From Cyanidioschyzon merolae (taxonomy: Eukaryota), in NCBI GenBank assembly GCA_000091205.1, contig AP006502.2: a stretch of DNA of 64,000 nt. The stretch is one strand, 5' to 3'. Each line of letters starts with the position of its first letter. The first letter of the stretch is position 1. Shown piece after piece: positions 1 through 56,149 of this stretch. A program made the translations under genes and the position numbers. Below the pieces are notes generated by a model. The model made no database searches. It was not told where the DNA came from and was given only the letters and a program-made list of their open reading frames with translations.

Positions 1-968
1 GAACAAAGCGCTCGTGCTCCAAAGCCACCCAGGTCTCGTGCTGCAGTCCGAAAGAGCCGCAGCAGAGCATCTGGCTGGAACCTGCACCCGTCCAGCGCTG
101 CTTGACGCGACACCGCCTCCTCCTCCCATGAAACTGCACATCGATTACGCGCCGCGCCGCTGCGCTACGCGATCTGTAACGCTTTCGCTTTGGAGGTACG
201 TCGGGGCCCGACCATCAGTACAGGGAACGTAACCTGGAGGTAGGGCGTTTGATGAATACTTTACAGTGCACTGAAAAAGAGAAAAAAGTAAGAAAAGAAA
301 AATGAACATATTCAGAGAACGCTCGCCTAAGTAAACGTTTTGTCAACGAAAAAAAGGTGCGCTGGGACGTTGGCGGAGCGCGCGGCACGTGCCTCTGTCA
401 TTCGCCTGGTGGAATCGAGAAGCGGTACACTGGAGCGCTTCACGATTCCACAAGGCTATAAATGGGGAATATGTCAAGGCATACCCAGGTTGTTTTAATG
501 GTAATGCTGATGTTATTGGCGATGTTGGTGCCTTCAACATCTTCGAAGGCGTCTAGAGCAGGTGCAGTGGAAGCTCGGAGCGGTGCACGATGGATAGCAG
601 TGCTATCTTCGACGCATAGTCGGGTCTGGAGTTCACGAGCTTGTCGAGGTGTCTGACGCCAAGCGCTATGCAATTTTCCGTTTGCGGACAAGAAGCGCGG
701 ATCCGAAGGGACCCAGTGATACGGATCCACCGTAGATCTGTGGAAGAAAGCACGTGCGAGCGCTGCATCCGGAATAGTCGGGCGCGTCTTGACTTTATGG
801 ACCTTGCTGGGAATGACGGGGATCATCGCACATCGTACGCGCCAAGTGCTTGGCCAAACGAGACCGCACAGGTCGCTCTACACACCGATGCACCTGTACT
901 GCCATGCCGTTGCTTGTAGGGAGCGCTTGCTTTCGCCTCGCGCCTAGTGCGTGAAGTTGCACGACAAC

Positions 969-2921
969 TCATCGCATCGCTCGATCGGCAGTTTTGCGGA
1001 AGCGTCCGCGCTGCTGGACTTGCCGCAGCCGATAACGCTGCATGCTTGTATTGCCTCGGTGGAGTTTGCGCAGCCGTTTGGGCAGCGTCTCAATAGGCCG
1101 GAATGGCTGAATGTACTTGATCGAAGCGTAGGCGTTCAGTTCGCGTTCGTCCATGTCAAGCATCTCCTCTGGTGAGACACCGAATGAGCGCGGTTCCACT
1201 CGTCGGTACCGGAAACGAGTATTTGCCAGCAAGTCCTCGCGGTTAAACTGGTCGACGTCACTGTCGTTATCGAACGGGGTAGCAATCTCGCTTGGGTGAC
1301 CGTTCATTCGATGCGAACCCGTGACCCGATCGCTACGCGCTGCAGAGCTGTCAGCGGGTCCAGAAGCGCTCTTTCCGATGCCGAAGTCGGCGTCCGGTTG
1401 CCAGCCCTCATCTGGAGCGCTCTGGTATGCCTCTCGTTCGAAGAGGTCGCGCATTGCAGTATCAAACTTGGTGGCGTCGAAATCATGGTCGCTCTCCGCA
1501 AGCGCTAGAACCCGCTCCACAAGCTCCATTTCGGAGGAGGCTCGTCCGCCGGATGACGCTGCCTTTGCCGACTGCTCCAGACCAGCAGCGCGAGCAATGC
1601 GTTGTAAGCGCTCTGTGCGTTCCGCTAAATGCACATTTCGCAAGCGACGAAGCGTCTCCAGCTGTTTGCGCTTCATGAGGTCTTCACGCGCCGCCTTGGC
1701 CTCACGCTGTCGTCTCCGCGCTTCTTGCTTTGCCGATGGCTTGCGCAGTGAGCCCTCAATTCGACGCGGGTGCGAGGGAATGAGATCCCCATGCGGCTCC
1801 TCGAAACGGAAATTGTGTGCTTGCTCGAACTGATCCTGCCTTTCGAGGAACTGCTCGTCCTCTTCTAGAGTGTCAGACGTTTGTGGATTGCGGAGATTTT
1901 CGACAGATGCAACGCGCTGCAGCAGATCATGAGCAGGCCCGAGCCATCGATTGTTCACGACATAGTCGTACAGAAAGGCATCCTTCTCGGCTACGGTCTC
2001 TTTCTCTAAGTACGCATGCTGTCGTTCTTCATCCGACTGAGGTGTAGCATCCACACGCCGAGCGTCAGTGGTGGTTCCCGGTGCCAGTGCAGACACACCA
2101 GAGACATGGGTCTGTAGGATTTCCTCCAACCGACGGTCGGTTTGTTTCACTATGAAAAAGTCTTCACTGCTCTCTTCATTCAATTCTTCGCTGACAGAGC
2201 GCTCATGATAATTCGCTACACCATCCGGCTTCATGGTTTCTCTTGCAGCCCGCTCCAAGAATTCCAGTCGAAGAGCCTCCTGCTGCTCATCGTAGACCGG
2301 TATGCGAGGACGGCGTTCCACAGTCTCCATGTCCGGGGTTACAGTTCGGTCTCTCTGGCCAACTTGCGAGGAATTCGACGACAGCTGCGACGATGACATG
2401 GACGAGGAGGAATCCGCCTCTGCCTCCCGCAGAAGCCCCTCACGCCAGTACTGATCTAGACACACGGCCTTCTCCTTTTCCGCTTTTAGCGCCAGAAGGT
2501 CGTATCCAGCGACCGGCTCTGCCTCGTCATTCGTTGTGGTTCCTGGACTAGATTCAGATCGACCACTAATACTGCCCGAGTCATCATAGAAACGATAATT
2601 TGGATCGTAGATGCGGGCATCGCGCCTTCTGATTAGCTCGAGCGTCTGCGCCCACTGCGCGTCCAGTCGTTTGGTGAGCAGCAGGCCCAGGTCATCCTCC
2701 TCGGTGCTTTCATCGGCATCACTGGATGAGGAATGCAAGGAGCTGGCACCCGATGGAGAAGGTGCCTGGTTGCGTGCTCGTGCTGGCCGCTGGTCAACGT
2801 CTCTTCGTTCGTTCAGCTGTCGTTCGACTTCTCGAAGGTTGCTAAGCTCCTCTCGCCGTTTACGCTTGTCGTACTCTCGCGCAAACTTTTGATTTATCTG
2901 CAGCTCCATAATAGAGTGCAC
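969..2921 (-). CDS. KRI1: KRI1-like ribosome-biogenesis protein (Kri1 N- and C-terminal domains)
   Basis: 650-aa uninterrupted ORF. N-terminus KFAREYDKRKRREEL. C-terminus FRYRRVEPRSFGVSPEEMLDMDERELNAYASIKYIQPFR, which matches the Kri1_C signature FRYRxVxPxSFGLTxxEIL...LNxxxSLKKLAPYR. Acidic/Ser-rich middle region typical of nucleolar proteins. Confidence 0.55.
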   Translation of the reverse strand: MHSIMELQINQKFAREYDKRKRREELSNLREVERQLNERRDVDQRPARARNQAPSPSGASSLHSSSSDADESTEEDDLGLLLTKRLDAQWAQTLELIRRRDARIYDPNYRFYDDSGSISGRSESSPGTTTNDEAEPVAGYDLLALKAEKEKAVCLDQYWREGLLREAEADSSSSMSSSQLSSNSSQVGQRDRTVTPDMETVERRPRIPVYDEQQEALRLEFLERAARETMKPDGVANYHERSVSEELNEESSEDFFIVKQTDRRLEEILQTHVSGVSALAPGTTTDARRVDATPQSDEERQHAYLEKETVAEKDAFLYDYVVNNRWLGPAHDLLQRVASVENLRNPQTSDTLEEDEQFLERQDQFEQAHNFRFEEPHGDLIPSHPRRIEGSLRKPSAKQEARRRQREAKAAREDLMKRKQLETLRRLRNVHLAERTERLQRIARAAGLEQSAKAASSGGRASSEMELVERVLALAESDHDFDATKFDTAMRDLFEREAYQSAPDEGWQPDADFGIGKSASGPADSSAARSDRVTGSHRMNGHPSEIATPFDNDSDVDQFNREDLLANTRFRYRRVEPRSFGVSPEEMLDMDERELNAYASIKYIQPFRPIETLPKRLRKLHRGNTSMQRYRLRQVQQRGRFRKTADRAMR

Positions 2922-3319
2922 TCTATTGCGTTCACTCGGGTCGTCAACTCGGGAAACGGCGGCGGGAACGCGTCCTTGTGGCCTTCAAATAGAGATGGTG
3001 TTGCGGCTCGTCCCTGTTACCTGATTTCGCGAGTGCAACTTGTTGTTCCCTGTTCGGGCGGGTTTCGCCTTCGAAAGATAACAGGTCCAGTTGACGCGGC
3101 TCAGTTGAAATTAGTGGTATAAGTACTCGAAGCACGGCACAGAGTCGAACGCTGCTGCCGGCAGTGTACAGTAGTGGCGAGAAGCCCGCCCTAGACACAA
3201 AGTCACCGAGTGACGTGCAGGCGCCTGCCAGACTTTTTCGACCGGCCACCCACAACTGCTTCCAACTTTTTCTCATATAGTAAAACTTTCAGAATTGTCC
3301 ATCAAAGTTCCCTCTTGTT

Positions 3320-5480
3320 TAGTCTGGAGGTCTATTCTCCAGTACCGCACATCTCCTTACATTGATAGCGGCGTTCAAGTCTCGGTTCACAAACTCCACC
3401 TGTTTCGTGCCGTTAGGAGTTTACTCACTAATGCGAGTAGCCCACGCACTTTCGCTAGCCTTTCCATGTGCTCGTCTGTCAGCGGTCCGTACTTTGCTAT
3501 ATCCTCGGGGCTCCCCGGACACTTTTCCATCTAGACCCTCTGAAGTGTACACCGCAGTTCATGGTGTGTATACGATGTTCGAAACTCATCTACCGGGTTC
3601 GTAACGAAACGCCGTGCGCACTCCTTGTACACCCTCGTCGTTGGAGCTGGTGTACACCCTTTTTGGGTCTTCCATCGCCCTGCTCGGTATGCTACTACTA
3701 GCCTCTGATTTTCATCCTCCTTCAAGGCGCTCAACTCATTGAAAAAATTCGCGAACGCCCGCTGCTTTCCACAGTATAGATTCATACGCAAACGAGCCCA
3801 TCTGGGCATTGTATACTCCTCCCACAGCGCATCCCAATGCGCAACACGAACTTCCATGAATTTCCGAAAAGCTTTAAAGTCTGCTTCTCGGCTCGTCACC
3901 TCGCTCGTGGCTTCCAGGTGATCCTTCATTCCTGCATCCCATGCAGAAATTTTCTTCCATGCATTCATTATACCGGATTCTCGGTAGTATCTCGCTCTCG
4001 AGATTCTCAAAAGACGCATGTCTTTTTTGACGTACGTTGCCGTCAGTCCCATCTTCGGCACGCTTCGGTGCTGCAATGGTGATGATATTCGTATTCCCCG
4101 GGTCCGCGCCAACGACAAAGTTGTTATCATGCACTTTTTGGGTCGCAGGACCCGCCTTCTTCTTTTCTTCATCCTTCGTCCCGCCAACCATAAAGGCGTT
4201 ATCCTGCACCTCCTGCATCACAGGATCCGCCTTCTTCTCATCTTCATCCTCCGTCACGCCAACGACAAGGTCGTTATCCTCCGCCTCCTGCGTCGCAGGA
4301 CCAGCCTCCTCCTTTTCTTCATCCTCCGTCACGGGCGCAGCCGAGGGCGGAACTGGACGATCTTTCTTCAACCGCCGGTAGTGTACACACAAGGCTACCC
4401 CATCGGTTTCGATCATCCCAGTGAATACCTTTTGCTAGCTCACTTTGAGTCGTTTGAAATCGAAGATATTCTTCCAGTACGTCTCCCTATTCTCACCGGT
4501 GAACTCTCTTCTCCTTACATCGAACTCTGAACTGATCTCCTTCATGATGCCATGAAGGACGCCGGAGTCGATAGTCCCAACATGTGACTTGATGTTTCAT
4601 AATGGATCGACGTTGAAGCGCTTCCCCATTAGGACAGCCTTCCGTCTCTCCGACTCCTCATTTTTTCCTCACGCAGCTTCACCTCTGCCTTGCATTCGAG
4701 TTCACGGTCCAAAAACACGAAATAGCGCAGGATGAGGCGATAGAATCTTTCCTTATCTTTTTCAACTCGGATATCTTGTCTGTTGGATTGACCAGCCCCA
4801 AGATCGCACGGTGCTCTTGTATAGCCGCACGGGTCACAGAAGCTTCATTCCTGCTCCTGCGTGACGTCTTCTTGTAGACGAATCTGAGTTCCTGTTTATG
4901 ATGGCGATCTTTTGGGACGCCATCGATAATGGCCCATATCGCCCTGCGAGACAGGCCAGCCTAGAGTGCAAAGACGGAGCGTATCATGAAACGATCGAGC
5001 TTCATGGTCATATGGTTCTTCAAGTTCGTGATGTACTTCATCGCCCCGTAGGTTTAAATATTCGAGTCACCCCTGTGTCGAGCACCGTCAAAGCAGGATT
5101 TGGCGTAATTTTAGTGGAGTGCATGTGCTCGCTCATCTCTCCTCAACGTATACCCTGTGCTAGCCATCGGGTCACGATTAAAAGTCTTGTCGGAATGTTC
5201 GTATGGAACCTCGACTTCTATGATGCCCGTCGTGTCGCGATACATCTTCCTGGCCATATGCATCATTCCTCAAACAGCCTTTTGCAATACTCATTTAGTA
5301 ACACGCGACTCGGTTTTTGATGGCCTCTTGCAACTTTTCCTTGTATGCATCCTTGATATGGCGTGGAAGATAGGCTTTCGTTACCATTTTGTCGTACTGT
5401 CGTCTTTCTTGCAGCATTCGACGTGGGGCCTCCCCCTTTCGGTCCTTCTTCTTCTTTTCCTGGTCTTCTGGACTCGGCAC
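3320..5480 (-). mobile_element. Degenerate TnpB/Fanzor-like RuvC-nuclease element, copy A (frameshifted relic)
   Basis: On the minus strand, ORF 3874..4416 contains the RuvC-I-like motif [19 protein letters not shown] (GxDxG) near 4100. ORF 3531..4187, in another frame, ends with a TSQ-like VDEFRTSYTHHELRCTLQRV. A third frame at 3363-3400 encodes the RuvC-III motif FVNRDLNAAINVRR. A possible N-terminal remnant ORF lies at 5295..5480. The domain order is intact but three or more frameshifts and stops are present. Confidence 0.5.
4128..4330. repeat. 3 x ~75-bp tandem duplication inside copy A
   Basis: The nucleotide repeat ...cgcaggacc(a/c)gcc(t)tcttc(t)tttcttcatcct(t/c)cgtc(a/c)cgccaac(g/c)a(c/t)aaag(g/t)(c/t)gttatc... 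occurs three times. It translates on the minus strand to [25 protein letters not shown] / [25 protein letters not shown] / [18 protein letters not shown]. Confidence 0.8.
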
Positions 5481-5639
5481 TGATTTCTGTTTTTTTTTCT
5501 GGCAGCCGGCGACCCTGGCCCTACAGGATCGTCGACCTGCTTTTTCATAACTTTCCTTTTTTTAGTTGTTTTGAAAAAGAACGCTCTTTGAACCCTTCTG
5601 TTGTATACTGCGAAAAAGCGCTTTACTAGACTTGTTTGA

Positions 5640-7640
5640 GGTGTGAAACGCAATCGAACTGAAAGACTGTACTTTGCTATGACTCCAACGGAAATCCAAC
5701 TTCTACAGCTGAACAACACACTACTGATCAAGATCACGGTTCCCTTCAACGGCGGCATGTGCGTCGTGTCTCATGCCTGCCTGATATCCCAGGTGCGCTC
5801 ACTGACCGCGATGCATGCACCGCGCGAGACGCTAGACCCATCGATGAAGGACACGTGTCCGACACCCCGCATTGGCACATGCGTGCTCTCACCGGCGCTC
5901 TGCGGCACACGCGGCAGCGGGTAGTTTCAGAAAAAAGAGAAAGCGGACACTCCTCCGCGGATGATCTGAGCTTACAGACTTTCAGTTCTATTTCGTTTCG
6001 CCCCCGCTGCAGTGTATGTTAAGACGTCGAAATAACTGTGCAACTTACCGTATATATCGTTGGCAAATTGTCTGCAGGATATATTCATTACTGAACAGCT
6101 CATGGAGGACTGCGTTCATCCTTGAGGTCAGTCGCACAATAATACGCAGATGGTTGATGAACACTGCAAGTAACAAATATATGCGCACCGCACCAAAAAC
6201 TGGTATTCTCAGCGCATGCTTGCCGTCAATGGTAGAAAACGATCCGCTGATAACCTTACGGAAACTTAGTGCAACGAAAGTGGTCACAACGGGCGTCTCT
6301 GTTTCCCAACACCTTGTCCATACTGTCCTGAAAACACCGGGATACAGGCGCAAAAGAAGACTCTATTCATTCACGGCCATCCTCTGCCAAAATCGCAATG
6401 ACAGCATTCCGAGGACTGAGCGATCGGTATGAGGCACAGGGTCGTCGGGTTTGCTATTCCATTCGTTGAGACTTTCTTCGGACGAAACGGTCCGAGTATA
6501 TATGGGTATTCGCGGAGCGGGGCCCCCATCGTAAATAGGATCGAAATCGAAGAGAACGAGGACATCTTCATCAGTCTTAGCTGTAGTGGATTCATTTGAC
6601 GGCCTCAGTTTCGCTCCTGCGGAAGGCACATACAACAGAACCCTCTTCGCCGGATCATTGAAGACTTTTCTCAGACGTCTGGTGAGGTCCTTCGATTCCA
6701 CAACGTTGCATTTCACCATTACCCTTGCATTCGAGTTTTACCGAATCTTTCGGGATAGAGCTGCTTTCTATTCCCCCGTGCGCTCCTTGATTCAACCCCA
6801 TCGAGGCCGCGTTTTGTATCGTGAAACGTCATGGTCGCTCCACTGGGCAGATCTCCGACGAGTTCGCCGTACCGTGACACACCGGGGGCGCATTTCGTCT
6901 TTCTTCCACACGTCCTTCTCTGTCCAAGAAAATTCTCACCGTAGTGCATCATGAAGTGTGTTCGTTTTGAAGAAATACAATATCCAAGAGATGAGCTGGG
7001 GTGTACACTCCAGAACGTCGAGATGGAGAGAGGCCAGGGAAGCGCTTCGGCGATAGAAGAGCACGAAGAGCTGGCAGAGCAGCAAACGGCACAGAGAGAA
7101 CGTGTTCGAGGAATCTTTGCATTCATGCGTTCAACGAGAGGTAATAAACGCATGGAGTCCGTGAACCAAGACTTCAACGCCGTCATCCATATCAAACGAT
7201 GCGTGGTGCGGATGACGAGATGCGCGGACCTGACACGATCCATCTTTATGGGCCAGCCTCTCAGGCTCAACGTGTACAAAGAGAAATTGAAATCGATAGC
7301 AGGGGTCCGGTCGTTAAAGACTGGGAGGCATCTGCGCGTCGTTATTCATTTACCCTCCATAATTGTGAAACATTTTGTCTTTCACCGACTCTACAGAAGA
7401 CGGCAATGGACTTGGGCTTGTGTCCCCGAAACGATCGATTGCAGTGAAGCATGTGGCTCCGCTTTGCACCAAGGCGACATAGACTGATAGAAATATCTGG
7501 ATGAGTTCCCAATCTTTGGTTTTTTCGGGTTCTTATTGCATCATGGACGACATCGCGCACCGCAAATCCTCGATTCACTGGAAAAGTGAGCGCTTGCGTG
7601 TGCAGCTGACAACGCACTCGCATACGGGATTGTACAGAAG
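5640..7640 (+). mobile_element. Degenerate TnpB/Fanzor-like element, copy B (head-to-head with copy A)
   Basis: Plus strand carries the RuvC-I-like motif SSSVLAVVDSFDGLSFAPAEGTYN at about 6565-6630 (ORF 6586..6954). ORF 6951..7487 carries PRDELGCTLQNV, homologous to copy A's HHELRCTLQRV, and a degenerate RuvC-III VNQDFNAVIHIKR at about 7161-7200. Its tail ...FMGQPLRLNVYKEKLKSIAGVRS is homologous to copy G's ...FMGQPLRVEVYEEKLKSIPCNRS. A fragment of the family's conserved RuvC-II-like block lies at 7539-7630. Confidence 0.5.
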
Positions 7641-8197
7641 AAGCGCGCCATAGCACGGTGCGACACCGGCGAAGTAGATTGCATCTATCCCTCTGGACCC
7701 TTCAACGGCATACACCAAGCTATAAAGCAAGCGTTTTCGTGCTTCAGGGCGACACCGGTATTACGCAATGTGGTAGACGCATAGGCATATCTCACGAGAG
7801 TCAGGTGTCACGGTTGCGAGGCGCTCAGCGAGGCTGTGTACCTAGAACTTGAAACAGTCCTGCGAAGCGTAGGTCGCAACTCTCGCATCTGCATGGAATG
7901 CACCAACGACTGACAGAAGCGGCGAAATCGGGACCTGAACGCTTCTATCCATTTCCTTTCGACAACGAACAACGGAACTGGAGGCAAGGAATACCCCAAT
8001 ACATTTAAAAACGTAGATGAAACAGTGGAAAAAGAGACCAGTTGAAGAAAAAGCTCCCAATGACTGGTATTGATGATCGTAGGAAAACCCGTAAACACTG
8101 GAGTGTATGCCGCAGTCAGCAAAACGGACCCTTTCCAGGGTCGTCTGACATGACAGCATCTGGAGAATCCACGAATACGCAGCTGCAGCAGAGGCAA

Positions 8198-8222
8198 CGG
8201 CGGCGGCGGCGGCGGCGGCGGC
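8198..8222. repeat. (CGG)8 microsatellite
   Basis: cggcggcggcggcggcggcggcg, about 300 bp upstream of the FAD-synthetase ORF. Confidence 0.9.
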
Positions 8223-8528
8223 GCATCCACAATGCCCCGAGAAGCACCCCCGTCGCGATCCGTACGTTCACTGCACAGTGCTCCGCCTTACGACGCGTCA
8301 CTGGAAGCTCACGCGCAACTGCTGCTTTCGCTGGAACTAACGTGTACAGTGCGGCCTGGAGCGTGGCGGCGCTGAACGACCAGCAAACGATTTTTCAGGG
8401 AAACACCAACGCTTTGGCGAGTGCCAGGGTCAGGGGCGTCCAGCGTCGGATTTCTCGTGTGTGCCCTCTAACGGAAATTTGTTTGCGAGGACGAGACCGA
8501 GCACGGGCTCGGGTTCACGCCCTACCCA

Positions 8529-9794
8529 ATGGAGTACCAGCACGCCCCAGCGTCTATCCGTGTACGTCCACCGCGACCGGAAAAACGTCTCCTGCCTTTT
8601 GTGAGCGCTGCTGGCGCCTTGACGCAACGTGTCTCGGGTAGTGCGTGGCCGTGTCGACCGGCTACCCGACGGCCGCCTCCGAAGCGACGAAACACCCGCT
8701 GCTGGGTTCTGTGCAACGCGCAACAGCGGCGAATAATTGTACCCGGAAAGTTTGATGCTCTTCACATTGGGCATCGAGAGCTTGTTTTACGGGCAGCGAG
8801 CTACGGAAAACCGGTCATTCTCACGTTCTCAGGCATGGCGGAAGTGCTAGGCCGCAGGGCGCAGTTGCCGATTGTGGCACGAACCCACATGGAGCACATA
8901 ATTCGAAACTGGTTCGCATTCCCCGGCCGAGACGCAGATCGTCCTTTGCTGAACAGTCCTCTGAAACCCATAGTACAGGACGCAGACGCGTTCGAGGTTG
9001 TGGTCGTGCCGTTCGCCGAGATTCGCCACCTCTCGCCCGAGGACTTTATTGTACAGTTCTTGTACAGGGAGCTGGGCGCTGGCGGCATTGTATGCGGCTG
9101 GGATTGGCGCTTTGGTTATCGGGCGGCTGGCGATGTCGCGCTGTTGAAGAGCCTTTCGGCAGCGCTTGGACGAGAGAGCCCCAGCGGCTGGGTCTTTGAA
9201 ACAGTACCACCAGTGCTCTCTCACGGTGACAGGGTTTCGTCGTCTACAGTACGCCGCCTCCTCGCCGCGGGCCGTATTCACCAAACCACGCGCATGCTCG
9301 ATCGATTCCACGCTTGTACAGCACGATGCACAGTGCTTCGCAACAGCACCGAGTTTCTGGAACTGTGTGTGGATTCGTGGGAAAACCAGCCACCAGCACC
9401 GTCTCGTCTTTACGAGTGTCGTGTTGAACTCCGCGTACGTTGTAACGAATCCACCATCGCAAAAGACGTGTCTTGGAAACGTCTCAATGCCTATGTGTGG
9501 ATCGAGTCAAGCGAGCGATCCGAGAGCGCAAGCGTACACGGCATCGCGGGTGCACCACTGCCGCTGCCGCTGCCACTGCCACGCCTCATCCAACTCTGGA
9601 CCTGTGATCGAATGGATGTACCGGTGAATGAATTCGGGGTATCGGTAACCAGCGACCGAGGTCGCGAACTCGGGGTGCTGGAACGAGCTCTCTGCAATGC
9701 ATCCGCGGTGGATGTGACACTCGAATTTCGTTCCGTTGTCACTGCATCAACGCCGGTGCTCGTGAACCGTTCGCCTCTGACGCGTTACACGTAG
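8529..9794 (+). CDS. FAD synthetase (RibF-type FMN adenylyltransferase), organelle-targeted type
   Basis: GKFDALHIGHRELV...SFSGMAEVLG...PIVA...FAEIRHLSPEDFIVQFLYRELGAGGIVCGWDWRFGYRAAGD matches the bacterial/plant-plastid RibF FMNAT domain. The N-terminus is R/S/P-rich and looks like a presequence, so the true start may lie downstream of 8529. The C-terminal ~200 aa was not recognised. Confidence 0.7.
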   Translation: MEYQHAPASIRVRPPRPEKRLLPFVSAAGALTQRVSGSAWPCRPATRRPPPKRRNTRCWVLCNAQQRRIIVPGKFDALHIGHRELVLRAASYGKPVILTFSGMAEVLGRRAQLPIVARTHMEHIIRNWFAFPGRDADRPLLNSPLKPIVQDADAFEVVVVPFAEIRHLSPEDFIVQFLYRELGAGGIVCGWDWRFGYRAAGDVALLKSLSAALGRESPSGWVFETVPPVLSHGDRVSSSTVRRLLAAGRIHQTTRMLDRFHACTARCTVLRNSTEFLELCVDSWENQPPAPSRLYECRVELRVRCNESTIAKDVSWKRLNAYVWIESSERSESASVHGIAGAPLPLPLPLPRLIQLWTCDRMDVPVNEFGVSVTSDRGRELGVLERALCNASAVDVTLEFRSVVTASTPVLVNRSPLTRYT

Positions 9795-9827
9795 CGTCCG
9801 ATGGTCCATTGGCGGTTCGTGGCGACT

Positions 9828-11486
9828 CTAGGGTCCCGTTTGACCGGTGGCCTGCAAACCAGCCCATCTGAAGAACTGGACAAAATGGATTCCTCCGTAA
9901 AAATTGTTCAGGAATCGCAGTGAAACAATCAACGAGCGATTCAAGACAGCGTGATTCGCGAAAAGCATATGTGAGAGTCGTTCGAGGCCCTCTACCAGCT
10001 GGAATCGCGGATTACTGGATAGCGCCATGAAAGCGCCCCAGCCGATCGAGTTCGGGAGCACTGGCGGCATCGGCCGAACGGGCGTGTAGTGGGCATCCAT
10101 GGCCTTGCGCAGGTGCAACAGGCCATAGGTGATGGCGGTGCCGACGACGCCACTCGCAAAACCGATCAAAAAGTACTGCGCAGATGTATGCAGAACGGTG
10201 AGCACTCGTGACGGCAGCGTGTACACTCGCAGTGGTGGCAAGGACTTTTCGAACGCGTTCGCTGGCAGTGACGTTGCCCAATTGAGATAGCGCTGCCATA
10301 CGCTCCCGATTAGTCCTCGCTGAACGGCACCCGTTTCCAGCTGCGACATCTGCGGGAACGGCGTGTAGGGCGCAAGCAACACCACAAATGAGGCCTCCAC
10401 AACGGTGCCGACGACCAGATCAGAGAGCACATATTCGAGCTCGTCGACGAGTTCTCTTCCTCGTACGAGAAACTCACCGACGAGTTGTGTTCCGTTCCCG
10501 ATGTATTCCTGGGCCAGGAGCTTGAAAATGAACTCGGGATCTGCGAGCACGCGATCTCGAAAGAACCGCCATTGCAAGAGCCACGCCACCAAGCCGCGGT
10601 CCTGGGCAAGGTAACGGGCGAGCGTTCGTCGCTCTATCCAGCCATGTTGGATCGCTTGAACGACTTCCGGCGGCAAGCTCTGAAGCGAACGTTTGTACGC
10701 GCGAAGCACACCGGCGATCTCTGGATCCGGAGACCAGTAGTCGCCGTGTTCGTCCGGGCCTTCGTAACGGCCACCCGAGCCACCATTGCCTTTCCCGAAC
10801 GACCCGTTACCGCCGTTGTTGCCGCTGTCGACGCCACTGGTCGGGCTGGGGCCGCTCAACCCGTGGTCTACGTTCTCCGACAGCGACGCCGTCTCGCTGC
10901 CAACAACAGTACCTGGCTGTGGCTGGGATCTGTGTCGATCACGATCCTCCAGCCCGAGGCAGCTTGAAACAGACCGCGTCCGCGCGAGTCCCGGAAGCAG
11001 GTGGCGATCGCTGTTACGTCGCGACGCTGAGGATCGGCTTCGCCACACGCGTATGTTTCCCAAAAGTTTCACCGGGGGATCACCATGAGAACGCACACGA
11101 CGTCGGGAAACGAGCGCCGGCAGCGCTGCTTCTGTTCTGGAGTACGCTCGGCGTGGGACGCGGCCCCCGTGGAGCGCCCTCACCAGTTGACGCTCAGGAC
11201 AGTAACGTCCGCGCCTAGATGCACCCGCAACTGCTCCAGCTGGCGTCAGAAATGCACAAAACATATGTTTAGTGCAAAAAGGGTTGCCTAACCACTCGGA
11301 CACGCCAGTGAAGTCAGTGTACTGGCGACGAGATTCGAACTCGCGAGCGCATACCGCGCAGTGGATATCGCAGACCCGGATGAGCCGCTTAAGTCCACCT
11401 CCTTGCGTGGAGCAGAAAAATGGTCGCTTATTCAGATATAAAGACAGCGGCGCTATGACTAGCTTGCGACTGATTTTTCCTTTCAA
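9828..11486 (-). CDS. RETICULATA-related (DUF3411) membrane protein, likely plastid envelope
   Basis: RDRVLADPEFIFKLLAQEYIGNGTQLVGEFLVRGRELVDELEYVLSDLVVGTVVEASFVVLLAPYTPF resembles the RER/DUF3411 core LADPSFLFKV...ELYxADLLVGxVV..LAPY. C-terminal hydrophobic segments are present. The N-terminus is R/S-rich and transit-peptide-like, so the true start is uncertain. Confidence 0.5.
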   Translation of the reverse strand: MKGKISRKLVIAPLSLYLNKRPFFCSTQGGGLKRLIRVCDIHCAVCAREFESRRQYTDFTGVSEWLGNPFCTKHMFCAFLTPAGAVAGASRRGRYCPERQLVRALHGGRVPRRAYSRTEAALPALVSRRRVRSHGDPPVKLLGNIRVWRSRSSASRRNSDRHLLPGLARTRSVSSCLGLEDRDRHRSQPQPGTVVGSETASLSENVDHGLSGPSPTSGVDSGNNGGNGSFGKGNGGSGGRYEGPDEHGDYWSPDPEIAGVLRAYKRSLQSLPPEVVQAIQHGWIERRTLARYLAQDRGLVAWLLQWRFFRDRVLADPEFIFKLLAQEYIGNGTQLVGEFLVRGRELVDELEYVLSDLVVGTVVEASFVVLLAPYTPFPQMSQLETGAVQRGLIGSVWQRYLNWATSLPANAFEKSLPPLRVYTLPSRVLTVLHTSAQYFLIGFASGVVGTAITYGLLHLRKAMDAHYTPVRPMPPVLPNSIGWGAFMALSSNPRFQLVEGLERLSHMLFANHAVLNRSLIVSLRFLNNFYGGIHFVQFFRWAGLQATGQTGP

Positions 11487-11599
11487 GTCCGTTTTGGTGC
11501 ATATCGTTTCGTTCAGGTGCGTACCGGGACCGGCCGCCTGCTATCGGTGTCGGTTCGTTGATCTGCGCTTATTTCGCGCATTAGAGGCCTGTCCCACGA

Positions 11600-12720
11600 A
11601 GGCTGGATCGTGTCAGCGACTTGGGTCTCGTCTCCAGCACACCGCATATCGTGTGATATGGATGGCGGCGTTAAAGTCTCGGTTCACGAGATCCTTGCGC
11701 GCATTGATTCTGGTGGAACGCGCCAATGCTAGCATTGGTCGAACTCGTGCCCACAGTGCCACTTCAGTCTCGTCATCGCTCCGTCAGAGGCAGACACCCT
11801 TTCTGGTCAACTTCTCCTTTTTCTTCGTCTTCTTCTTCATCACTTGCTCTGCGTCGCTCAACAGTCGGCGAGAAGAGGATTTTTTCGATTTTCTTCGGCG
11901 GTTGGTGGTGACGGCTCTCCAGGATCCTCGACCTGCGTACCAATATCATTCAGTTGGAATTTTCGTTTCTTCAAATGAATGCACTTGTTTATGCCCCTAG
12001 GCGAGGTCCTTCCCGTATCGAAAAGCACTTGCTGAAGGAAGACGAAATGTGCCCCATCATGTGACAATGTGGAGGACGCTTCAGCGATTCGCCGAATAGA
12101 GCGATCCTTACTTTTCACGATAGAAAGCACTCCTTCGATTGTGCTGAATCACCGAAATGTACGGAGGAATGGGAAGCAGCTCTGGCCCTATAGAATCGGG
12201 AAACGCTAGAACGCAAGTGGAATGGTGAAATACCACAATATCCAACAGAAAGACGTCTTCAGACCTCAGAGGAAAGTCTTCAACGAATTGACAAAGAGGT
12301 TGGTGATGTTGTACGCGCCTTCTCTACGTGCGCAACTGAGGCTGCCAAGTGAATCCACTGCACCCAGAACAGACGATGATGTCCGAATTCTCTCCGAGTC
12401 CGATCGTACATACAACGCGTTCCTTCTCCGCGAAGATTCATAGACCCTCTGATCGTCTCGTCCGAGGCAATTCTCATCCATCTTAGAAACAAACAGACGT
12501 CCCTGCGTTCCATACCTATCGCAACGTTGCAGGAACGCTTTAGGTGCAATATCGGTGCAAGATGGCCGTGCTTGAAACTGGACTTTTTGCGACTGTATCC
12601 CAGAGGTTTCAGGACCATACGAACAAGCAGTTGAGAAACAGAGGCACCTGTGGTGGCTTCTATCGTCGCTTTTTGCTTTCCATAAGTTTATGGACAGGTC
12701 GACTTCTACCATCGACCGCA
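11600..12720 (-). mobile_element. Degenerate TnpB/Fanzor-like element, copy C
   Basis: Minus ORF 12266..12721 carries the RuvC-I-like motif SERIRTSSSVLGAVDSLGSLSCARREGAYNITNLFVNSLKTFL, homologous to copy B. The minus strand at about 11645-11700 encodes ARKDLVNRDFNAAIHITRYAVCWRR (RuvC-III). An N-terminal remnant may extend to about 13400. Confidence 0.45.
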
Positions 12721-14421
12721 AGCACGCTTCGAGTGCAAATACTTCACTCTTTCAGTGTTCCTGAACCATCTGGGTCCTGTAGTATGACTAACATGGGTGA
12801 GTAATGGAGTCCTCCTTGCACTGCTCACTAAACAATACGTATCCTACAGGCAATTCGTATACAATCTATACCGTAAAGTTCCATCTTCATTTCGATCTCT
12901 TGCTATTTACCGCAGCAGGGGAGTGAAACAAATTTGAGTTGAAACCCATAATCGGTGCCGCATTCGGGGCAGCCTTGACGGCGACGCGGCATCCTAGTAG
13001 AGTAGGATCTATCGACGGCAAGCGAGCGAGCAAGCGAACTACTCCGTGCTATGCATGCCGTGAGGTGTCCAAGTACCGCCAGCCGGCGGTCAACACCTGC
13101 GGTACAAATAACACTGCCGCTTGACGGATGCTTCTCTGGTTGCTGATGCCCGAAGCGCATTCGGGTGTCCCTGGTCCATGGAAACGAGCTGTCGAGGGGA
13201 AACATGGTCGGTGAGCGTGCATACTGGTAACACTGACGGGCAATGTGTCGCGCGTCATACGCTCATCTGCATCAACGTCAGGTCTCGAGGAGGAAAGGCC
13301 AGGTCCGCGCGTATGCACTGTTCAGGGATTTCCGTTCCATCATTCCGATAACGATGCGCGCATGTCCAGCAGTTTCGAAAGGATGCGCATCACGCCAAGA
13401 ATGCCGCAGGCCAAAAATTTCGGTACGCATTGCTGCCGCCACTAGAGAGCCAGTTCACCGGGACGTATGTGCTAATGCACTTGTGCGGCAGGCACACGCG
13501 TTTCCGCACTTGACAGGATCTGACGCTGACGACTGCAGACGCTTCTCCTGCCCGCGGTATCACTTGAGCGCTACTTCGTCCTCGGCTCAGTTGCGAGGAG
13601 GCGAACGCATGCGCCTCTCCAGATGAGTAGCCTTTTCGTCGCTAGAAAAGAATCCCATGTACCACTGGAGTATTGTGGGGCGTGACGCTCTGAGATGTTA
13701 TCCTTGGCAATTTACAAAGTACCCACTCGAGCAAGAAATGTACGTCAAAAAACATGCGAGGCGCAGTGAACGAGGCGTGCCATTTTTCATCGTACATTAG
13801 CTACATGCGACTCGTGTGGGCGCGATGTGCAGGAAACACCTTACGGACGCTTATCATGAAATTCTCGTGACTCTCACTAGTCTCGACGAACAATCCAAAT
13901 CGTGATCCAATCGAAGCAGCAGCAGTTAGGTTTTCACTCCAAGTCGCGGGATCCGGTGATTGCTCTTCACAAGACGGCCACGCTAAGGTAGCGCACATTT
14001 TGGTTTATGGAGGATCCATGCATTGACCTAGGAGCTCTTGCATCCGCAATCGTTTTCAGCGTCCAAGGAAGCGATCCTGAATCCACTCCAGCCTCCACGA
14101 CGTACTACGATCCCCTGCCAACGCTCTTCGTCGGGAATGATCGTGCAATGCTACCAGCAGCCAGCCGGGTGCCGAACCAAACCTAGGTGCCTCCTTCGAT
14201 ACCCGATATGCCGCTCACGCACGAACGCAGGCTTACAGAGCAGCGCTCAGGCGTCTTGGGGGTACCAACTCGACGCTGTTGCCGCGCATATGACGACGTA
14301 CTGAATGCCCAACGCATCGAATGCGAAGAGGCTCCCATGCAGCCATGCATGCCGCACTGATCGGGCTATCGTCACGCGTTCAGCACCGACTCTTTTTATC
14401 GAATGGATCCAATCTCACATG

Positions 14422-15913: not shown

Positions 15914-16199
15914 AGCGGTGGTAAACGTTGCACGGCGCGATGCGCCCCTGGTTACCCACATCGCTGCGTATGTCATGCTTCATTTCGTGTCTCATAGCGG
16001 ATGCTACGGCCGTGTTCGATTCGAATGCGACGATGAACGATTCGCGCTGATCCTGTCGTTCGCTCATTTTCCGAACTATTTTAGATGTTCAGCCTCGACA
16101 TGCAAGGTGCAGCAGTCAGAGCGTACGGCTAGGCGCCTTGTATAAGGATACTCGGTCGTCGTTCGGGGTAGCTCCTTTGGATCAATGCCGGTTGGATTC

Positions 16200-17330
16200 G
16201 GTACGTCACTGGTATCCATGTGATTCGCAAAGACATTGAACGAGGGTTCGCCAAACTAGCCGATATGATTATCCGATAAATATGCCCAAGCCTCCATGAT
16301 TCTCCTTTTGTCATATGCAGCGTGCTGAATCCACGCATGCTTCAAGTCTTCGACCGTTGTGTTTCGAAGAAATTCGCAGGGCGCAGCAGCTGGCGCCGCT
16401 GGATTGACGACGTAAAATACAACTGCAGGTCGTCTGCTAGCGACTTTTCCATAAGCTCACACCCGAAAGTTCACGGAACCGTTCCCGTCAAATCATCGAT
16501 ACTGATCCACGGACGAGGCCTCCTCTGTTTGTGGCCGTAAATAACATGTCAGTCTACAACAAGCTGATACCTCGAACGAAATATGCTCCCAGAGGCTCCC
16601 GTCTCTCCTGTTACGATGGCAATGGATTTTGAGCTCGGACTTGCGTCATTGGAGCAATCGCGTTGAGCGGAAAGTGCGTCACCGCTTTGCACAAAAGGAG
16701 CCTATACGCATCGAAATTGCCGGACTTGTTCTCGAGACAGGATTTTCCTTCCAGTACTTGCTTCATCATGGACAACATGGCTTCTTCGGATCCTCTGTAG
16801 AATGGAACACGTTGGGCATAATTCTACAGCAGACAGCGTGCTCGCCGAGGGCATCACCCAGAAGAATCATGTTATGGTCGGATATTGTAAAGTGCGTGGA
16901 AACGGAGGAGAGCATTTCGGAGAGCCTCCTGTGTCAGTCAGGGGCATCTGCCGAGCGATAAAGCAAGCGTTCACGCGCCACCCGTCGACGCTGGAATTAG
17001 AAGATGTGATGGACATATGGAAACGCTTGACCACAGTCACCTGTGACCACTGCAAAGCGTGTACCGAGGCGGAATATTAAGAAGATAGACATGTCGAGCG
17101 AGGCTTCGGTCGCAACTTCCGCCTTTGCACGAAATTCATCGACAACGTCCGAAAGTAGTGAAATCAGAGCGTTCACACCGCCGCCAGCTCCCTGCAAATG
17201 CTGACGACGGATCTAAAGAAACAGTAGAAACAGGCGCATTCGTAGCCAGAGATCACAAGGACCTAAAGGAAGCAGTCGAAGAAAAAGCTTACAACGGCTG
17301 ATGTTGATAACAATGTTAAGAGAACCAGTG
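16200..17330 (+). mobile_element. Degenerate TnpB/Fanzor-like element, copy D (subfamily 2)
   Basis: ORF 16629..16961 (RHRFAQK..GFSFQYLLHH..EESISESL..ER*) is homologous at nucleotide and protein level to copy E. ORF 16802..17080 ends ...ELEDVMDIWKRLTTVTCDHCKACTEAEY, a TSQ-like motif followed by CxxC. A degenerate RuvC-III ADVDNNVKR lies at about 17300. Multiple frames are involved. Confidence 0.45.
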
Positions 17331-17466
17331 TTTCATGTGTATGCCCAAGTCAGGTAAGTTGAGCCTTTCCATTTGCTATCGACATTTCGCGTTGCCACTG
17401 GATGCATACGCATACGCGGCGCTGTGCAGGTGCCCAACACCGCAGGAGAACTCGAAACGCCGCCCG

Positions 17467-28135: not shown

Positions 28136-28399
28136 CCGAAAGCTCCTGGCCAACGAACACGGGTACCGTAACAGCGAGAACCGCGCAGGCGTTGCGTGCC
28201 GAAAGGGCCAGATCAAAACGAGAGCGCTGAAAACTGCGCACTCCATATCTTTCGATCGATTTTCCGGAGCTTTCATGAGATATACAGCCTCGACATTCCA
28301 AGTGCGACAATGAGTGATTACGGATTCATGCACAATTTTAGGATGCATGGTCTTTTTTTTCTGAGGTGACTCGTTCGATGCTTTGCCGTCCGAGTTTTT

Positions 28400-29400
28400 A
28401 CCATCACCGGAATCGAGGTGATTCGCAGCGCCAGCGATCGGTGATTCGTTAAATAACCGATACCATCACCGGGCTCATACGTACACGCCCTCATGCTCCT
28501 CGTTTCCTTGCGTGCAGTGTGCTCAAATCAAGCATTTTTCTAGATTTCGATCTTTCAGTTTTAAGGCAGCTCGTGGGTTCAGCAACTGATGTCGCCTCAT
28601 GAACGTTGAACAAACCTGACGTCATCCCTTGACGAGTTCCGCACGGACTCATGCCGAAACTTCGCTGAACTTTTCATGTGAAATAATCGATTCCGTTCGA
28701 GCGACAAGTCCTCCTCTCTTGTGGAAATCTATGAAACGGCATTCAGCGCAAGCATGGAACCCTTCACGGGATATGCTCCCAGGGGTGACCGTCTCTTCTA
28801 TTTGCGAGGCAATGGTTTCGAACTCTGACTTTAATCATCACGGAGATCGCTCGCAAAGGAGAACGCGTCATCGGTTCGCTGGAAAGAAGCGCTCACGGAT
28901 CGGAATATCTCGACTTGATCTTCAGCATGGATTTTGCTTCCGGTACTTGCTCCATCATCGACAATATCGCGTTCCACAAATCGTCTATCGAATAGAACAG
29001 TGTGCGCTTGCGTGTGCAGTGGACAGCGCACTCTCTGAGAAGATCATTCCGAAAAGCCCGCGATCACAGGATGCAGAATCGGGCGCGGAAACGAAGGAGA
29101 GCATACAGGAAAGCCTCCCGTACCCGTCAATAGCATGTACTGAGCGATGAACGACGCGTTCTCGAAGAATAGCGCAGCGCTCCAACGAGGAACTGTGGTG
29201 GACATGTACGAACACCTGACCACTACAAAGTATCACCGCGGCGAGGGACGCATTTGGGCTGTATCCAGAGAAGACCAACCTGGCGAGCGAAGTTTACACC
29301 ACAATGCCTGCCTGTGCATAAAATGCGGTGACAACAGCCGAATGCAGCGAAATCTGGACTTGAACGCAGCCATTAACGTCGTTTGACCGCTGACAATGAA
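28400..29400 (+). mobile_element. Degenerate TnpB/Fanzor-like element, copy E (subfamily 2)
   Basis: ORF 28629..29150 is homologous to copies D and F. The conserved block at 28954-29038 reads SIIDNIAFHKSSIE, which is RuvC-II-like, and contains an in-frame stop. ORF 29147..29386 reads TVVDMYEHLTTTKYH (TSQ-like) ... CLCIKCG (CxxC) ... RNLDLNAAINVV (RuvC-III at about 29351-29383). At least one frameshift lies between the parts. Confidence 0.5.
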
Positions 29401-29830
29401 GCTGCAGTGACAGGAATGACCGGTGCCCTTAAAGTCGTAGATAAGAGAGAGGAGAGGGAAGCAGTCGGAGAATAATCCCGAAAAAGGCTCGTGTTGATAT
29501 TCGTGGAAAGAGAACCCAACTTTATCATGCCCGCCCGAGTTGCGTTCGTATACCCATCCCATTTTACTCGTAGATGGGTACAGAAGCATCCGATTTGGAG
29601 AACAAGACCTTGTGTGCCGCAACATATTCATTCCACGTCAGTGGACACACACACAGAGGCATTTCTGCGCATTTTTCGATTCGAAGATGCGCGTCCTCGC
29701 AAACATTTGCAACAGTCTATTGTAAAGCGTACATAGCCTCAGCTCGCTGGCTAGCTCCACAGTAAAAGTGTCGGCGCATGGACGCTACTCTGAATGAAGC
29801 CACGTATACAGTTGGCTGGTTCGAGTTCCG

Positions 29831-31750: not shown

Positions 31751-32569
31751 AGCACCTTGGTGATTTCTTTGATAGTCGTGATGACGTCTCGACCGAAAGT
31801 TCAGCTTGGATTCCGTTTCGTACTGCTCAGTGCTGTGAGAGAGCAGCGCGGAACACCGGCACGACGTGTCAGAGCTACCGCCTACCTGCTTTTCAGGAAC
31901 GCTTCACCCTCGATTCCAAGCATTGAAGACGCAGAACGCTTGGAACCGCAGCGACATATGCACCGTGTATCCGGCGGTAAAGGCCGGCGGCTGTTAAAAG
32001 TCTCTATATCTGCGGCTATGCGCGTGAATGTTTTCGTGTAGCCAACTCGATGCAAACGCTCCAAGCCTTGGGCTTTGTGCGCCGCTCGCCTCCATCACAA
32101 GCCCACACCTTCCACAGTCGCATCTCGCGCTAGAAAGCCCGAAACTTCATGAAAGGACTACGGTCGCGCTTCGTCGTCTGTACCGTGACGTGCGCTTGCG
32201 CATCTGCGGCTCGCCATGTATGGGTTTTTTCGATGACAAAACGTTTAGATTGACCATGGATCCCAGAATTCGGGATGGATAATGGCTTTCGGGCAGAGCC
32301 TCCAAGATGAAGCACCTACCTTCAAGCTCCATTACCCATACCTCCTCTCGGATATACTGGTCGCTTCGTATGTTCTATAGTGCACCGAGTGCCTGTTTTG
32401 AGCACCCGCCTTGACGCTTATACCGCTAAAGCAGATGCCGCACGGAGACAGAACGGCTTTGCCATACCACTGAGGGCGTCGGCTCGAGCGGAGGCGCCAT
32501 GTACGTGTGCTGCACCTTCACGCGACACCATGCGTAAACCACGACGCTGGCATAGCGGAACCCAGCGTC

Positions 32570-42701: not shown

Positions 42702-44128
42702 TTTGGTCAGCGACCCTGCATGAGAGTCACACTGCTGCGAAGGGTGTTCTTTTTTGGACGAATATTTCCTCTGTTCTGTGGGTTCGGATGCGACGAGCGA
42801 GCTAATCAAGCACGCGATCGACGTACCGCATGCGAACAAAATGAACTGTTTCTTCATCGGGATGTAGTATACCGGAGAGCGCAAGTTTCTGTATTGGTGG
42901 TATCCTTCATACCGATGAGAGCATCGCCACCAGGGCGCCATTTGGGGCATCTGGATGATGCAAGGCTTCCAGGGTCGTTCCGAATTGCACGTGACTTTCC
43001 CATGGACTTGATGTCCGGAGCACGGTTTTAGCGCAATGTCCTGCACACGCTGGCAGCTGAGCTTCAACGTATCGATCCGGTATTGCAAGCAGGCCCAGTC
43101 GCAGAAAGCACGCCAAGGCTGGAACCGCTGCGCATGGAGCTATTCGCACCCTCTAACCGCTTCCCTCCAGGTATGATGCAGCCATTGGTACGAGGTCTTT
43201 CCAGGAACATTTCGCAGAAAGGCCCGGTCAACCGCATCACACGTGCCGGCCGCTCAGACGCGCGCGGGTACCTTCGCAGGCAATTTTGTCCCAGTTTGCA
43301 AGTCGCCAGCACAAGTGACCCCAAAGACAGCAGCTTCCCTATACTCGCTGTCACAGTGGCTTCTCCATGGTAAAACCCGTGGTTTGGCACGCAAGTTCCT
43401 CGGTAGCAGAGCATCTCAGTCTTTGAAAGCGGGTCTATCGCCGCGTTTGCAGTACGATCGCAACCACAAGAGCATCCAACGCAACACGCAAAAATCAGAA
43501 CGCTCGAAGCGATCCCACAACTCGAGCACGCACCTGCAGCTGCACCATGCCGAATCTGGACAGTGCTCGCATACCTGCACGCACAGAGCTGATACTGCAA
43601 TCCCGCCTTAAATTGACCCTATCTAACCGTTCGAGCTGAACCGAGTATGAGCTGTCCATAGGGAGCACGCATGCCGACACGTGTACGTCCTGGGCAGCAG
43701 CACAGATTTTTTCATTGACAAAACATTTACTTTGGCCAGCGTTCTCCGATTATGCGCATTTTTCTTTTATTTCTTCATGTTTTTTTTTCAGTGCGCGGTG
43801 AAGTATCCATCAAACACCCTGCCTCCAAGTTATATGACCCATACTTCTTCTCGGATATTCTGGTCGTTTCATACGTCCTATCGTGTGTGCCTAGTGCCTG
43901 CCGAAGGCGACAGAACGGCTTTTCTGTACCACACAGAGGGCGTCGGCTCAAGGGGCAGCACCGATGCATGCGCGCCCGGCGCGCGCGGCTCGACGAGCAC
44001 CGCCGAATCGCTCGGATGCCGTCTCCTGGACGCTTTCGCGGCAGGGCGACGCGTGTCAAGTGCGCAGCGTTCTGTGCGCGCGTTGCGACAAGCGCTTCAA
44101 GCGCTGATCAGAGAGCTCGCTTAGAAGC

Positions 44129-54153: not shown

Positions 54154-54999
54154 GGCCTAGCGTTTGTGGAGGCCTGCAACGCACCCTGGACAATCACAGG
54201 CGCTTGGAAGCACGCCGCGACTAGCAGACAACACACGCCGATGCAGCGTTCTGGTCGAAGCTGGTTGAAGCGGGGCGTGCTCTGGGCCAGTGAGTGTACT
54301 TCGCTGCTGCCGCTGCTGCTAGAGGTTCGGGTGCTCCATTCCCCACCGAAGCGCTTGTCCTGAACGCGAATTCCCATGCAAACCTCGCAGCGTGAAGCAC
54401 AGTGGCTATAATAGCTTGTGGTTGGGTGCTTTCGCGTCGAAGGGCGCGTTCCGGGCGACCGCTGAGGTCTGTCGAAAAGGACACCAGCCCGTGGATGCCT
54501 GACAAAGAAGCGCTGCATCTATGCTCTGAATAGGGTTTCTGGTGTCCCCGAACGCTATAATGGTTGTCTCGCTGTTGTTCGTGTCATAGACAAAACGGCG
54601 AATACTGTGGATGCTGGTTGTGAGGTACAGGTCGTGACGCCTGCACGAGCGCGCGACGCTTCCTTACGATACCCGCTGTCTGGTTCCGAGCGCTCTGCAA
54701 CTGGCTATGGCGACTGTACCACGCTACCCACGGTTCCGTGCGATACCGGGTGTCTGATGCCAAGCGCTCTGCAACAGGCGATACGGCTGCTGCAACGGGC
54801 GCGAGACGGCAATGTCAGATGAGAAAGGAACGCTGAACTGCTCGAATAGTTCCTTCATTGCGATTGGTAACGCAGCTCCTATTAGGTTTACAGCCACGAG
54901 ATTCGAGGAATAGCTGTAAGGACATACGGATTCGTACTTAGGTTAAGGATTCTCGTTGGTTTCTCCGAGGTCGCTCATTCCAATCTATCCGTTGGAATT

Positions 55000-55700: not shown

Positions 55701-56149
55701 ACACACTGAGAGAAGCTCTGTACACCCCGCCGGCGCTTCTATCAAGCGATGGGGCAAGCGTTGACGGGCTCTCACGTGGCCCTCCACAGATGACGTCTAT
55801 TGGGCAAATAGGAACACCTGCGCAAAATCAAGGAGCGTGGGTGCGAAACGCGCATCGAGACTTGATATAAAAGTAAAAAACGTTGCAAGCGAAGCCCAGA
55901 TTGCAGCTTTTGGCAGTGCATCGAATGCGTCGACACCAGCCGAAAGCAGCAAAATCGGGCCCTGAACGCGACTTTCAAAATCCTTCAACTGCGAACATCG
56001 GGAATAGAGTGAAACTAGAGACCAGCGTATACACAGACGGATATGAGAGAGCGGAAACGGAAGTAGTTGAGGAAAAACGCTCCGGAAAGCCACTCTTCAT
56101 GACCTTGGAAACAGACCCAACATTTTGAGTCTACATCCGAGGTCGGTGC

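Follow-up and report, generated by a model that had tools for sequence, protein, structure and literature searches.

The stretch analysed here, 64,000 nucleotides of chromosome 20 of Cyanidioschyzon merolae 10D (the window), belongs to a compact genome with few introns and a G+C content of about 55%. It contains a 5.6 kb gap between the genes for KRI1 and FAD synthase, and within this gap lie three dead transposon remnants. It is highly probable that the gap is a graveyard of DNA-transposon remnants that were inserted independently of one another, and that together they do not form a composite transposon. By sequence comparison, the first (copy A, minus strand) is a decayed CMe-1 element carrying a Fanzor1 pseudogene, the second (copy B, plus strand) is a chimera in which a transposase pseudogene is followed by the tail of a Fanzor gene, and the third (plus strand) is a truncated copy of another chimeric family, designated R-type. 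The chimeras may have had composite elements as their ancestors, since intact tandems of a transposase and Fanzor1 exist elsewhere. An original prediction, made from the DNA sequence, had described a 4.3-kb transposon island (3320-7640) consisting of a head-to-head pair of TnpB-like relics between the KRI1 and FAD-synthetase genes. Pfam matches to the flanking genes (Kri1 and Kri1_C on one side, FAD_syn on the other, the latter in BAM83180 at 8529-9794) bear out this location, and the island itself is real, but the third relic (7432-8152) makes it larger than proposed. Copy A is indeed a relic of the kind suggested, a Fanzor1, whereas the body of copy B is a DDE_3 transposase and only its tail is of Fanzor type. 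None of the open reading frames (ORFs) of the island is present in the C. merolae annotation or in the protein collection that was searched, although five of six long ORFs of the window compared by exact sequence are identical to annotated proteins of strain 10D (for example BAM83196, TCP-1 alpha, and CMT213C). As a whole, the island is ordinary debris, composed of a known family and decayed chimeras, and is not a new system.

Fanzor1 proteins are eukaryotic homologs of TnpB, and are RuvC endonucleases guided by an omega RNA and carried as transposon cargo. The only Fanzor family given for C. merolae is CMe-1, of which CMe-1A has ~150 copies with ~80% identity to a consensus of 3169 bp that encodes a Fanzor1 of 734 aa (Bao & Jurka 2013, PMC3627910). 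In the same study, CMe-1A is described as lacking inverted repeats, with target duplications undetermined and the transposon class unknown, and its 5' 635 bp correspond to TE-N2_CMe (Bao & Jurka 2013, PMC3627910). The consensus was taken from the supplement of that paper, and by blastn its positions 648-3153 align to window positions 5810-3148 on the minus strand, with 84–87% identity; a global alignment gave 85.7% over 2515 columns. A multi-copy alignment moved the 3' end of copy A out to ~3132, and an 89-bp 5' extension, common to the paralog L022, reaches up to 5899. The element thus occupies about 3132-5899, a length of about 2.77 kb, and the limits first assigned to it (~5480-3320) were not upheld. 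A perfect 12-bp palindrome, GGACACGTGTCC, is found at 5850-5861 within the 5' extension and is kept in L022. The 635-bp TE-N2_CMe module is absent from copy A, which begins at consensus position 648, and four other independent copies (L017, L019, L020 and L022) have their start at 660-671, which makes the module an optional part of CMe-1A. Solo TE-N2_CMe fragments occur in the window at 32231-32488 and 43818-43953 (CMe-1A consensus 1-255, 83–87% identical).

Codon-by-codon alignment to the consensus ORF places the Fanzor1 pseudogene of copy A at 3191-5548 (minus strand; 734 aa in the consensus), with the ATG at 5548 retained and a consensus-aligned TAG stop at 3193. The ORF is broken by 7 frameshifting indels and 10 in-frame stops, and its codon differences from the consensus comprise 159 nonsynonymous and 92 synonymous changes. 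With these 17 lesions in copy A, and only the tail present in copy B and the third relic, an intact nuclease ORF is missing from the gap. When the minus strand is read across the frameshifts, the three RuvC motifs can be recognised, each with its catalytic residue kept: RuvC-I (GADPGNTN, 4087-4110, D), RuvC-II (VDEFRTS, 3573-3593, E) and RuvC-III (VNRDLNAAINVRRC, 3349-3390, D). The codons for the split D...E...D triad and the C-terminal RD/NAA motif are therefore all present, and together with the match to CMe-1A they confirm the proposal of a TnpB-like relic on this strand. Sequence comparison also located a motif, TTTCAGTTCGATTGCGTTTCA, in the 5' untranslated region (UTR) of copy A (5644-5664, minus strand; consensus 793-813). 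With the stitched translation as query, over 200 close homologs were recovered from hot-spring metagenomes. Copy A has the same 734-aa ORF layout as CMe-1A and, like the published family, is without inverted repeats or target duplications; it differs in having the 89-bp 5' extension in place of the TE-N2_CMe module, three linker units instead of one, and a gene that has become a pseudogene. On these alignments, copy A is one dead member of the published CMe-1A Fanzor1 family.

The assignment of the CMe-1 family to Fanzor1 is supported by profile and fold comparisons. Scans of the island ORFs and of intact family proteins against Pfam and NCBIfam gave no TnpB or Fanzor match, and a PDB search with close relatives of copy A also found none. 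An exhaustive profile search retrieved 1481 relatives of the family, and a 54-sequence profile, compared to the PDB with hmmsearch, matched the Fanzors of Parasitella (PpFz, E=4e-19), Spizellomyces (SpuFz, E=1.5e-11) and Guillardia (GtFz, E=1e-3). In the 54-sequence alignment, D318 and E490 of the RuvC triad are invariant and D559 is nearly so. AlphaFold2 (AF2) modelling and fold comparison were performed on an intact member, P0007, and not on the copy A pseudogene. A shallow alignment of close relatives gave a predicted local distance difference test score (pLDDT) of 35, and the deeper 54-sequence alignment was required to obtain a model with a pLDDT of 82.5. The seven best Foldseek matches of this model in the PDB are all Fanzor1, headed by SpuFz (E=5e-12, template modelling (TM) score 0.66), with TnpB and Cas12 structures far behind in the ranking.

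Compared with the solved Fanzor1 structures (SpuFz1, 8GKH/9CEY; PpFz, 9CF0; GtFz, 9CER), CMe-1 shows profile similarity over the REC-like and RuvC regions, a similar fold (TM 0.63-0.66 to SpuFz) and a conserved D/E/D triad. However, sequence identity is only ~14–15%, a variable, acidic linker of 25-aa repeats precedes RuvC-I, and HH...C...C replaces the CxxC...CxxC zinc ribbon. The zinc-ribbon region of CMe-1, between RuvC-II and RuvC-III, consists of HHxxxC-x9-C only and has no match to PF07282, and the CMe-1 clade shows no evident C4 ribbon of the canonical kind. With the prokaryotic TnpB proteins of IS200/IS605 and IS607, and with Cas12f, CMe-1 has the RuvC fold superfamily in common, but its fold matches to TnpB (8H1J) and Cas12 are weak (TM to TnpB only 0.2-0.3), no TnpB model of Pfam or NCBIfam matches it, its host is a eukaryote, and its partner would be a DDE transposase and not TnpA. 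For an omega RNA, there was no Rfam match in the window, and RNAalifold applied to the last ~100 nt of eight 3' ends gave a covariation term of +1.65 kcal/mol and few compensatory pairs, and so no support from covariation; these results neither prove nor disprove an omega RNA. Two metagenome sequences, L022 and L023, contain the same 449-aa Fanzor ORF (P0011), followed by an IF-2 gene in one and a gene for a DAO-family oxidoreductase in the other, and the 3' UTRs of the two clearly differ. Recent activity, gene conversion or a chimera of metagenome assembly could account for this.

Directly N-terminal of RuvC-I, copy A carries a 3 x 75-bp in-frame array (4107-4333, minus strand) that specifies acidic linker units of 25 aa. 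It is the single array detected by Tandem Repeats Finder in the region 3000-8000 (period 75, 3.0 copies, 80% matches, score 300), is found by self-blastn (E=2e-34), and adds 150 bp to the single unit present in the consensus. The duplication had been noticed previously and correctly placed ahead of RuvC-I, but with limits of 4128-4330, and it had been taken as a sign of continued evolution of the elements once they were inserted. That interpretation does not hold, as the number of units ranges from 1 to 6 among the 37 family proteins that span the segment, and the array was inherited. Units 1, 2 and 3 of copy A reach identities of 0.88, 0.72 and 0.76 with the unit in the corresponding place (first, middle or last) of other multi-unit copies, but only 0.52-0.64 among themselves, which argues that the array came with the source element. 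A triplication arising in place was considered and rejected because the units match those of other copies position by position; the divergence between units (~20%) does not settle where the triplication arose, whereas this unit-by-unit match does. Three units are kept in the orthologous metagenome contigs. The linker segment is disordered in the AF2 model (pLDDT below 50), and a disordered linker of this kind fits with a tolerance of changes in unit number.

Copy B (5973-7415, plus strand) had been described as a second TnpB-like copy running from ~5640 to 7490, but its homology to Fanzor is confined to about 6951-7415, and the stretch in which its start had been placed (5640-5810) belongs to copy A according to the consensus alignment. 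Homology among the B-type copies starts at a 5' motif, TTTCAGTTCTATTTCGTTTCG (5980-6000, plus strand), and all of them begin with this 21-nt motif, which is also present in the CMe-1A 5' UTR (consensus 793-813). It is followed by a pseudogene for a DDE_3 (IS630/Tc1-mariner) transposase, recognised by Pfam at 6016-6880 (plus strand), with its helix-turn-helix (HTH) region at 6076-6318. The stitched translation matches DDE_3 with 30.8 bits (gathering cut-off 28.6; E=3e-7). Of the three catalytic sites, the first no longer has its D (VETFF, 6465-6491), the second has H in place of D (FHNVAFHH, 6696-6719), and only NPIE is retained (6791-6814). A four-copy DNA consensus built from B, its paralog copy C, L006 and L011 restored a single reading frame with three stops. 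It gave a stronger match to DDE_3 (E=1.5e-11, 44.8 bits) along with weaker matches to HTH_33 and HTH_Tnp_Tc3_2, and includes the catalytic residues (DETFF, FDNVAFHH and NPIE). The inferred protein is 38–44% identical, over 94–99% of its length, to intact DDE_3 transposases of ~300 aa. A PDB search with the decayed transposase profile produced no match.

The Fanzor1 C-terminal tail of copy B (about 6951-7415, plus strand) covers roughly aa 590-734 of the consensus, or the last ~150 codons, and lies within an open ORF of 178 aa (6951-7487). Residues 413-558 of P0009 match 6993-7415 by tblastn (E=3.5e-26), and at the DNA level 6991-7340 is 71% identical to CMe-1A consensus 2737-3089 (blastn); a RuvC-III-like motif, VNQDFNAVIHIKRC, is found at 7161-7202. 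The preceding part of the element, 5980-6975, is homologous to copy C (12944-11966, minus strand) and not to copy A, and the junction between transposase and tail is identical in B, C and L006, which occupy different loci. Copy B is a chimera, a mariner/IS630-type transposase pseudogene followed by a Fanzor tail. Its paralog, copy C (11583-12944, minus strand), has the same junction and is 67–72% identical to B, and metagenome contigs L002-L005, L015 and L016 preserve the copy C locus at 99%.

The third relic (7432-8152, plus strand) corresponds to positions 474-1206 of the R-type family consensus, and is a 5'-truncated copy with a DDE_3 remnant and a Fanzor tail. Full copies occur in the window at 16186-17373, 28380-29563 and 54989-56148, all on the plus strand. 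In the seven-copy consensus, a DDE_3 remnant (E=7e-6) precedes a Fanzor C-terminus that carries a CxxC...CxxC zinc ribbon and the motif NRDLNAAINI. This tail matches Pfam Cas12f1-like_TNB (PF07282) with E=8.6e-9 and the Fanzor1 profile with a probability of 97.9% (hhalign). As the R-type junction differs from that of the B-type, the layout of transposase plus tail arose twice, and the R-type Fanzor represents a lineage distinct from CMe-1. Tail-to-tail with one R-type copy is an internally deleted CMe-1A element (56228-57448, minus strand), in which consensus 85-951 is joined to 2862-3093, so that the TE-N2_CMe module, the 5' UTR and only the tail of the Fanzor gene are kept. Three independent kinds of presumed deletion derivative, the B-type, the R-type and this CMe-1 copy, retain the last 230-500 bp of the Fanzor gene and have lost the rest.

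Among the closest intact transposases, at 41–42% identity to the reconstructed B-type protein, are those of L032 (ENA ERZ27257101; 436-3634) and L035 (SRR32481250; 1-3384). Both sequences are apparently intact composites, in which the DDE_3 transposase is followed, ~200 bp downstream and in the same orientation, by a full-length Fanzor1 of the CMe-1 clade (702 aa in L032 and 624 aa in L035). By hhalign, these Fanzor1 proteins match the CMe-1-clade profile from end to end with a probability of 100% and an E-value of about 1e-150. Both contig ends of L035 carry inverted repeats of 34 nt that start with TATACTC. Composites of mariner and Fanzor1 have been described before in the Pythium and viral elements PUl-1, PUl-2 and PGv-1 (Bao & Jurka 2013, PMC3627910). 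L032 and L035 resemble them in having the transposase first and Fanzor1 second in one orientation, L035 also in its inverted repeats, and the B-type and R-type relics maintain the same order of transposase and Fanzor 3' end. In contrast to those composites, the chimeras of the window have only the last ~150 codons of the Fanzor gene, their two genes are defunct, and neither inverted repeats nor TA duplications are found; the B-type transposase itself is only weakly similar to that of PUl-1 (hhalign probability 54%).

These comparisons suggest that the B-type and R-type chimeras are internal-deletion derivatives and that CMe-1 is of mariner-type origin. The latter is indicated because Fanzor tails stand directly behind IS630/Tc1-mariner pseudogenes in two families, and because the nearest intact transposases precede full-length Fanzor1 genes of the CMe-1 clade, in L035 between inverted repeats. 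The ancestors would have been mariner-type composites with the order inverted repeat, transposase, Fanzor1, inverted repeat, and the Fanzors of C. merolae would have arrived on such elements. Internal deletions sparing the transposase and the right end would have produced the B-type and R-type, CMe-1 would be a Fanzor-only derivative, and all of these derivatives would since have decayed neutrally. We infer this history of deletions, as neither inverted repeats nor TA duplications are left in the window. A B-type transposase homolog is also carried by L033, a contig of 35 kb, where it adjoins a Herpes_ori_bp (D5-like helicase-primase) gene (1-1743 and 5001-5882), which suggests a giant-virus-like carrier. 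Viruses have been proposed to spread Fanzor elements, and L033 is in line with this.

The head-to-head orientation of copies A (minus) and B (plus) given in the original prediction is confirmed by the element coordinates. The ~150-bp gap that it placed between the two 5' ends is in fact part of copy A, and the real spacer, about 73 bp (5900-5972), is unique, with no match outside orthologous contigs. The explanation offered for the arrangement, that two TnpB-like copies form a composite transposon or result from a nested insertion, is very improbable. In its favour, the two elements are opposed at their 5' ends, share a 32-nt inverted repeat (5640-5671 and 5973-6004) and both contain Fanzor-derived C-terminal sequence. 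Another such pair of CMe-1 elements is found in L020, from a wild relative (14-1393, minus, and 1417-3910, plus), with 5' ends only 23 bp apart, and head-to-head juxtaposition may be commoner than chance. However, the body of copy B is a DDE transposase pseudogene and not TnpB, and a self-comparison of the island revealed the expected homology between its halves only in the C-terminal tail and the 21-32-nt 5' motif (5640-5671 against 5973-6004), the bodies being unlike. The 32-nt repeat is explained by the B-type copies beginning at a motif of the CMe-1A 5' UTR (consensus 793-813), and in copy A it is internal and not an element terminus; no inverted copy of it was found near any 3' end. Searches for bounding inverted repeats and target duplications at A, at B and at A+B yielded only chance-level 4-5-mers, neither was found at the ends of copy B (5973/7340-7415), and none was present at any boundary of the island. 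Nor is either element split by the other: the far side of B does not hold consensus 1-647, which A lacks, and the 5' sequence lost from the third relic does not turn up beyond A. The arrangement is kept in wild populations, since metagenome contigs L007-L010 are 97.6–98.6% identical over 3621-10843, and a metagenome scan with a two-sequence alignment recovered mainly orthologous loci. Such conservation across the island, and the persistence of the open 178-aa ORF (6951-7487), might be expected of a domesticated Fanzor or transposase gene, or of a regulatory module for KRI1 or FAD synthase, under selection, but a functional island of this sort is scarcely credible. Identity is about the same in the flanking genes of the same contigs (L010 spans 3838-10843 at 98.3%), copy A has its 17 disabling lesions and 159 nonsynonymous against 92 synonymous codon changes, the first two DDE residues of copy B are lost, and the ORFs are neither annotated nor in the protein collection. 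With orthologs keeping the arrangement at flank-like identity, it is old, fixed and evolving neutrally. One wild-strain contig, L008, matches the window at 98% as far as 8213 and differs from there on, a structural polymorphism; past its position 4520 (window 8213 onward), it has an R-type-like segment upstream of the FAD-synthase site of strain 10D.

A different account of the B-type would be that a CMe-1-like Fanzor element had its first ~590 codons replaced by an IS630/mariner element, through insertion or recombination. The B-type does resemble a CMe-1 backbone with a swapped interior, as the CMe-1 5'-UTR motif lies directly upstream of the transposase ORF and a CMe-1-like tail downstream, yet we regard this as unlikely. 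Elsewhere, a transposase and a Fanzor1 from these two protein families stand intact in tandem, no inverted repeats flank the transposase inside copy B, and the R-type repeats the layout at another junction, for which recurrent deletion within composites is the simpler explanation. Descent from mariner-type composites by internal deletion is the reading we prefer, and several observations weigh against it. The C. merolae relics have no detectable inverted repeats or TA duplications, so that a mariner-type origin would be argued from gene content and from distant intact relatives, and the reconstructed B-type protein has an identity of only ~42% to the transposases encoded by L032 and L035. The B-type and CMe-1A have in common just the 21-32-nt 5' motif and a 3' tail of 71% identity, and a chimera produced by recombination or capture is possible. 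Furthermore, the 5' ends of CMe-1 are heterogeneous (the TE-N2_CMe module, the 89-bp extension or other sequences), and simple cut-and-paste transposition is therefore inadequate to account for them.

That all three kinds of deletion derivative keep the end of the Fanzor gene raises the speculative idea, to which we give little weight, that the tail is a cis-acting right end together with the omega-RNA gene, served in trans, and that the B-type elements are autonomous partners of CMe-1A and TE-N2_CMe. If true, Fanzor-less elements with the tail would be served in trans by the Fanzor1 of intact CMe-1 copies, and the B-type would supply the missing transposase-encoding partners of the 'unclassified' CMe-1A and TE-N2_CMe; that a transposase of this kind mobilised CMe-1, and that the family acts under RNA guidance at all, are both inferences here. 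Copy A, as one of the ~150 catalogued copies of CMe-1A, adds to what is already known, and the remainder of the island is decayed debris that matters little in itself. The modest new lead is that CMe-1, a family published with its class unknown, may be linked to mariner-type transposases, and L032 and L035 are candidate intact composites with which Fanzor1 of the red-alga type could be tested.

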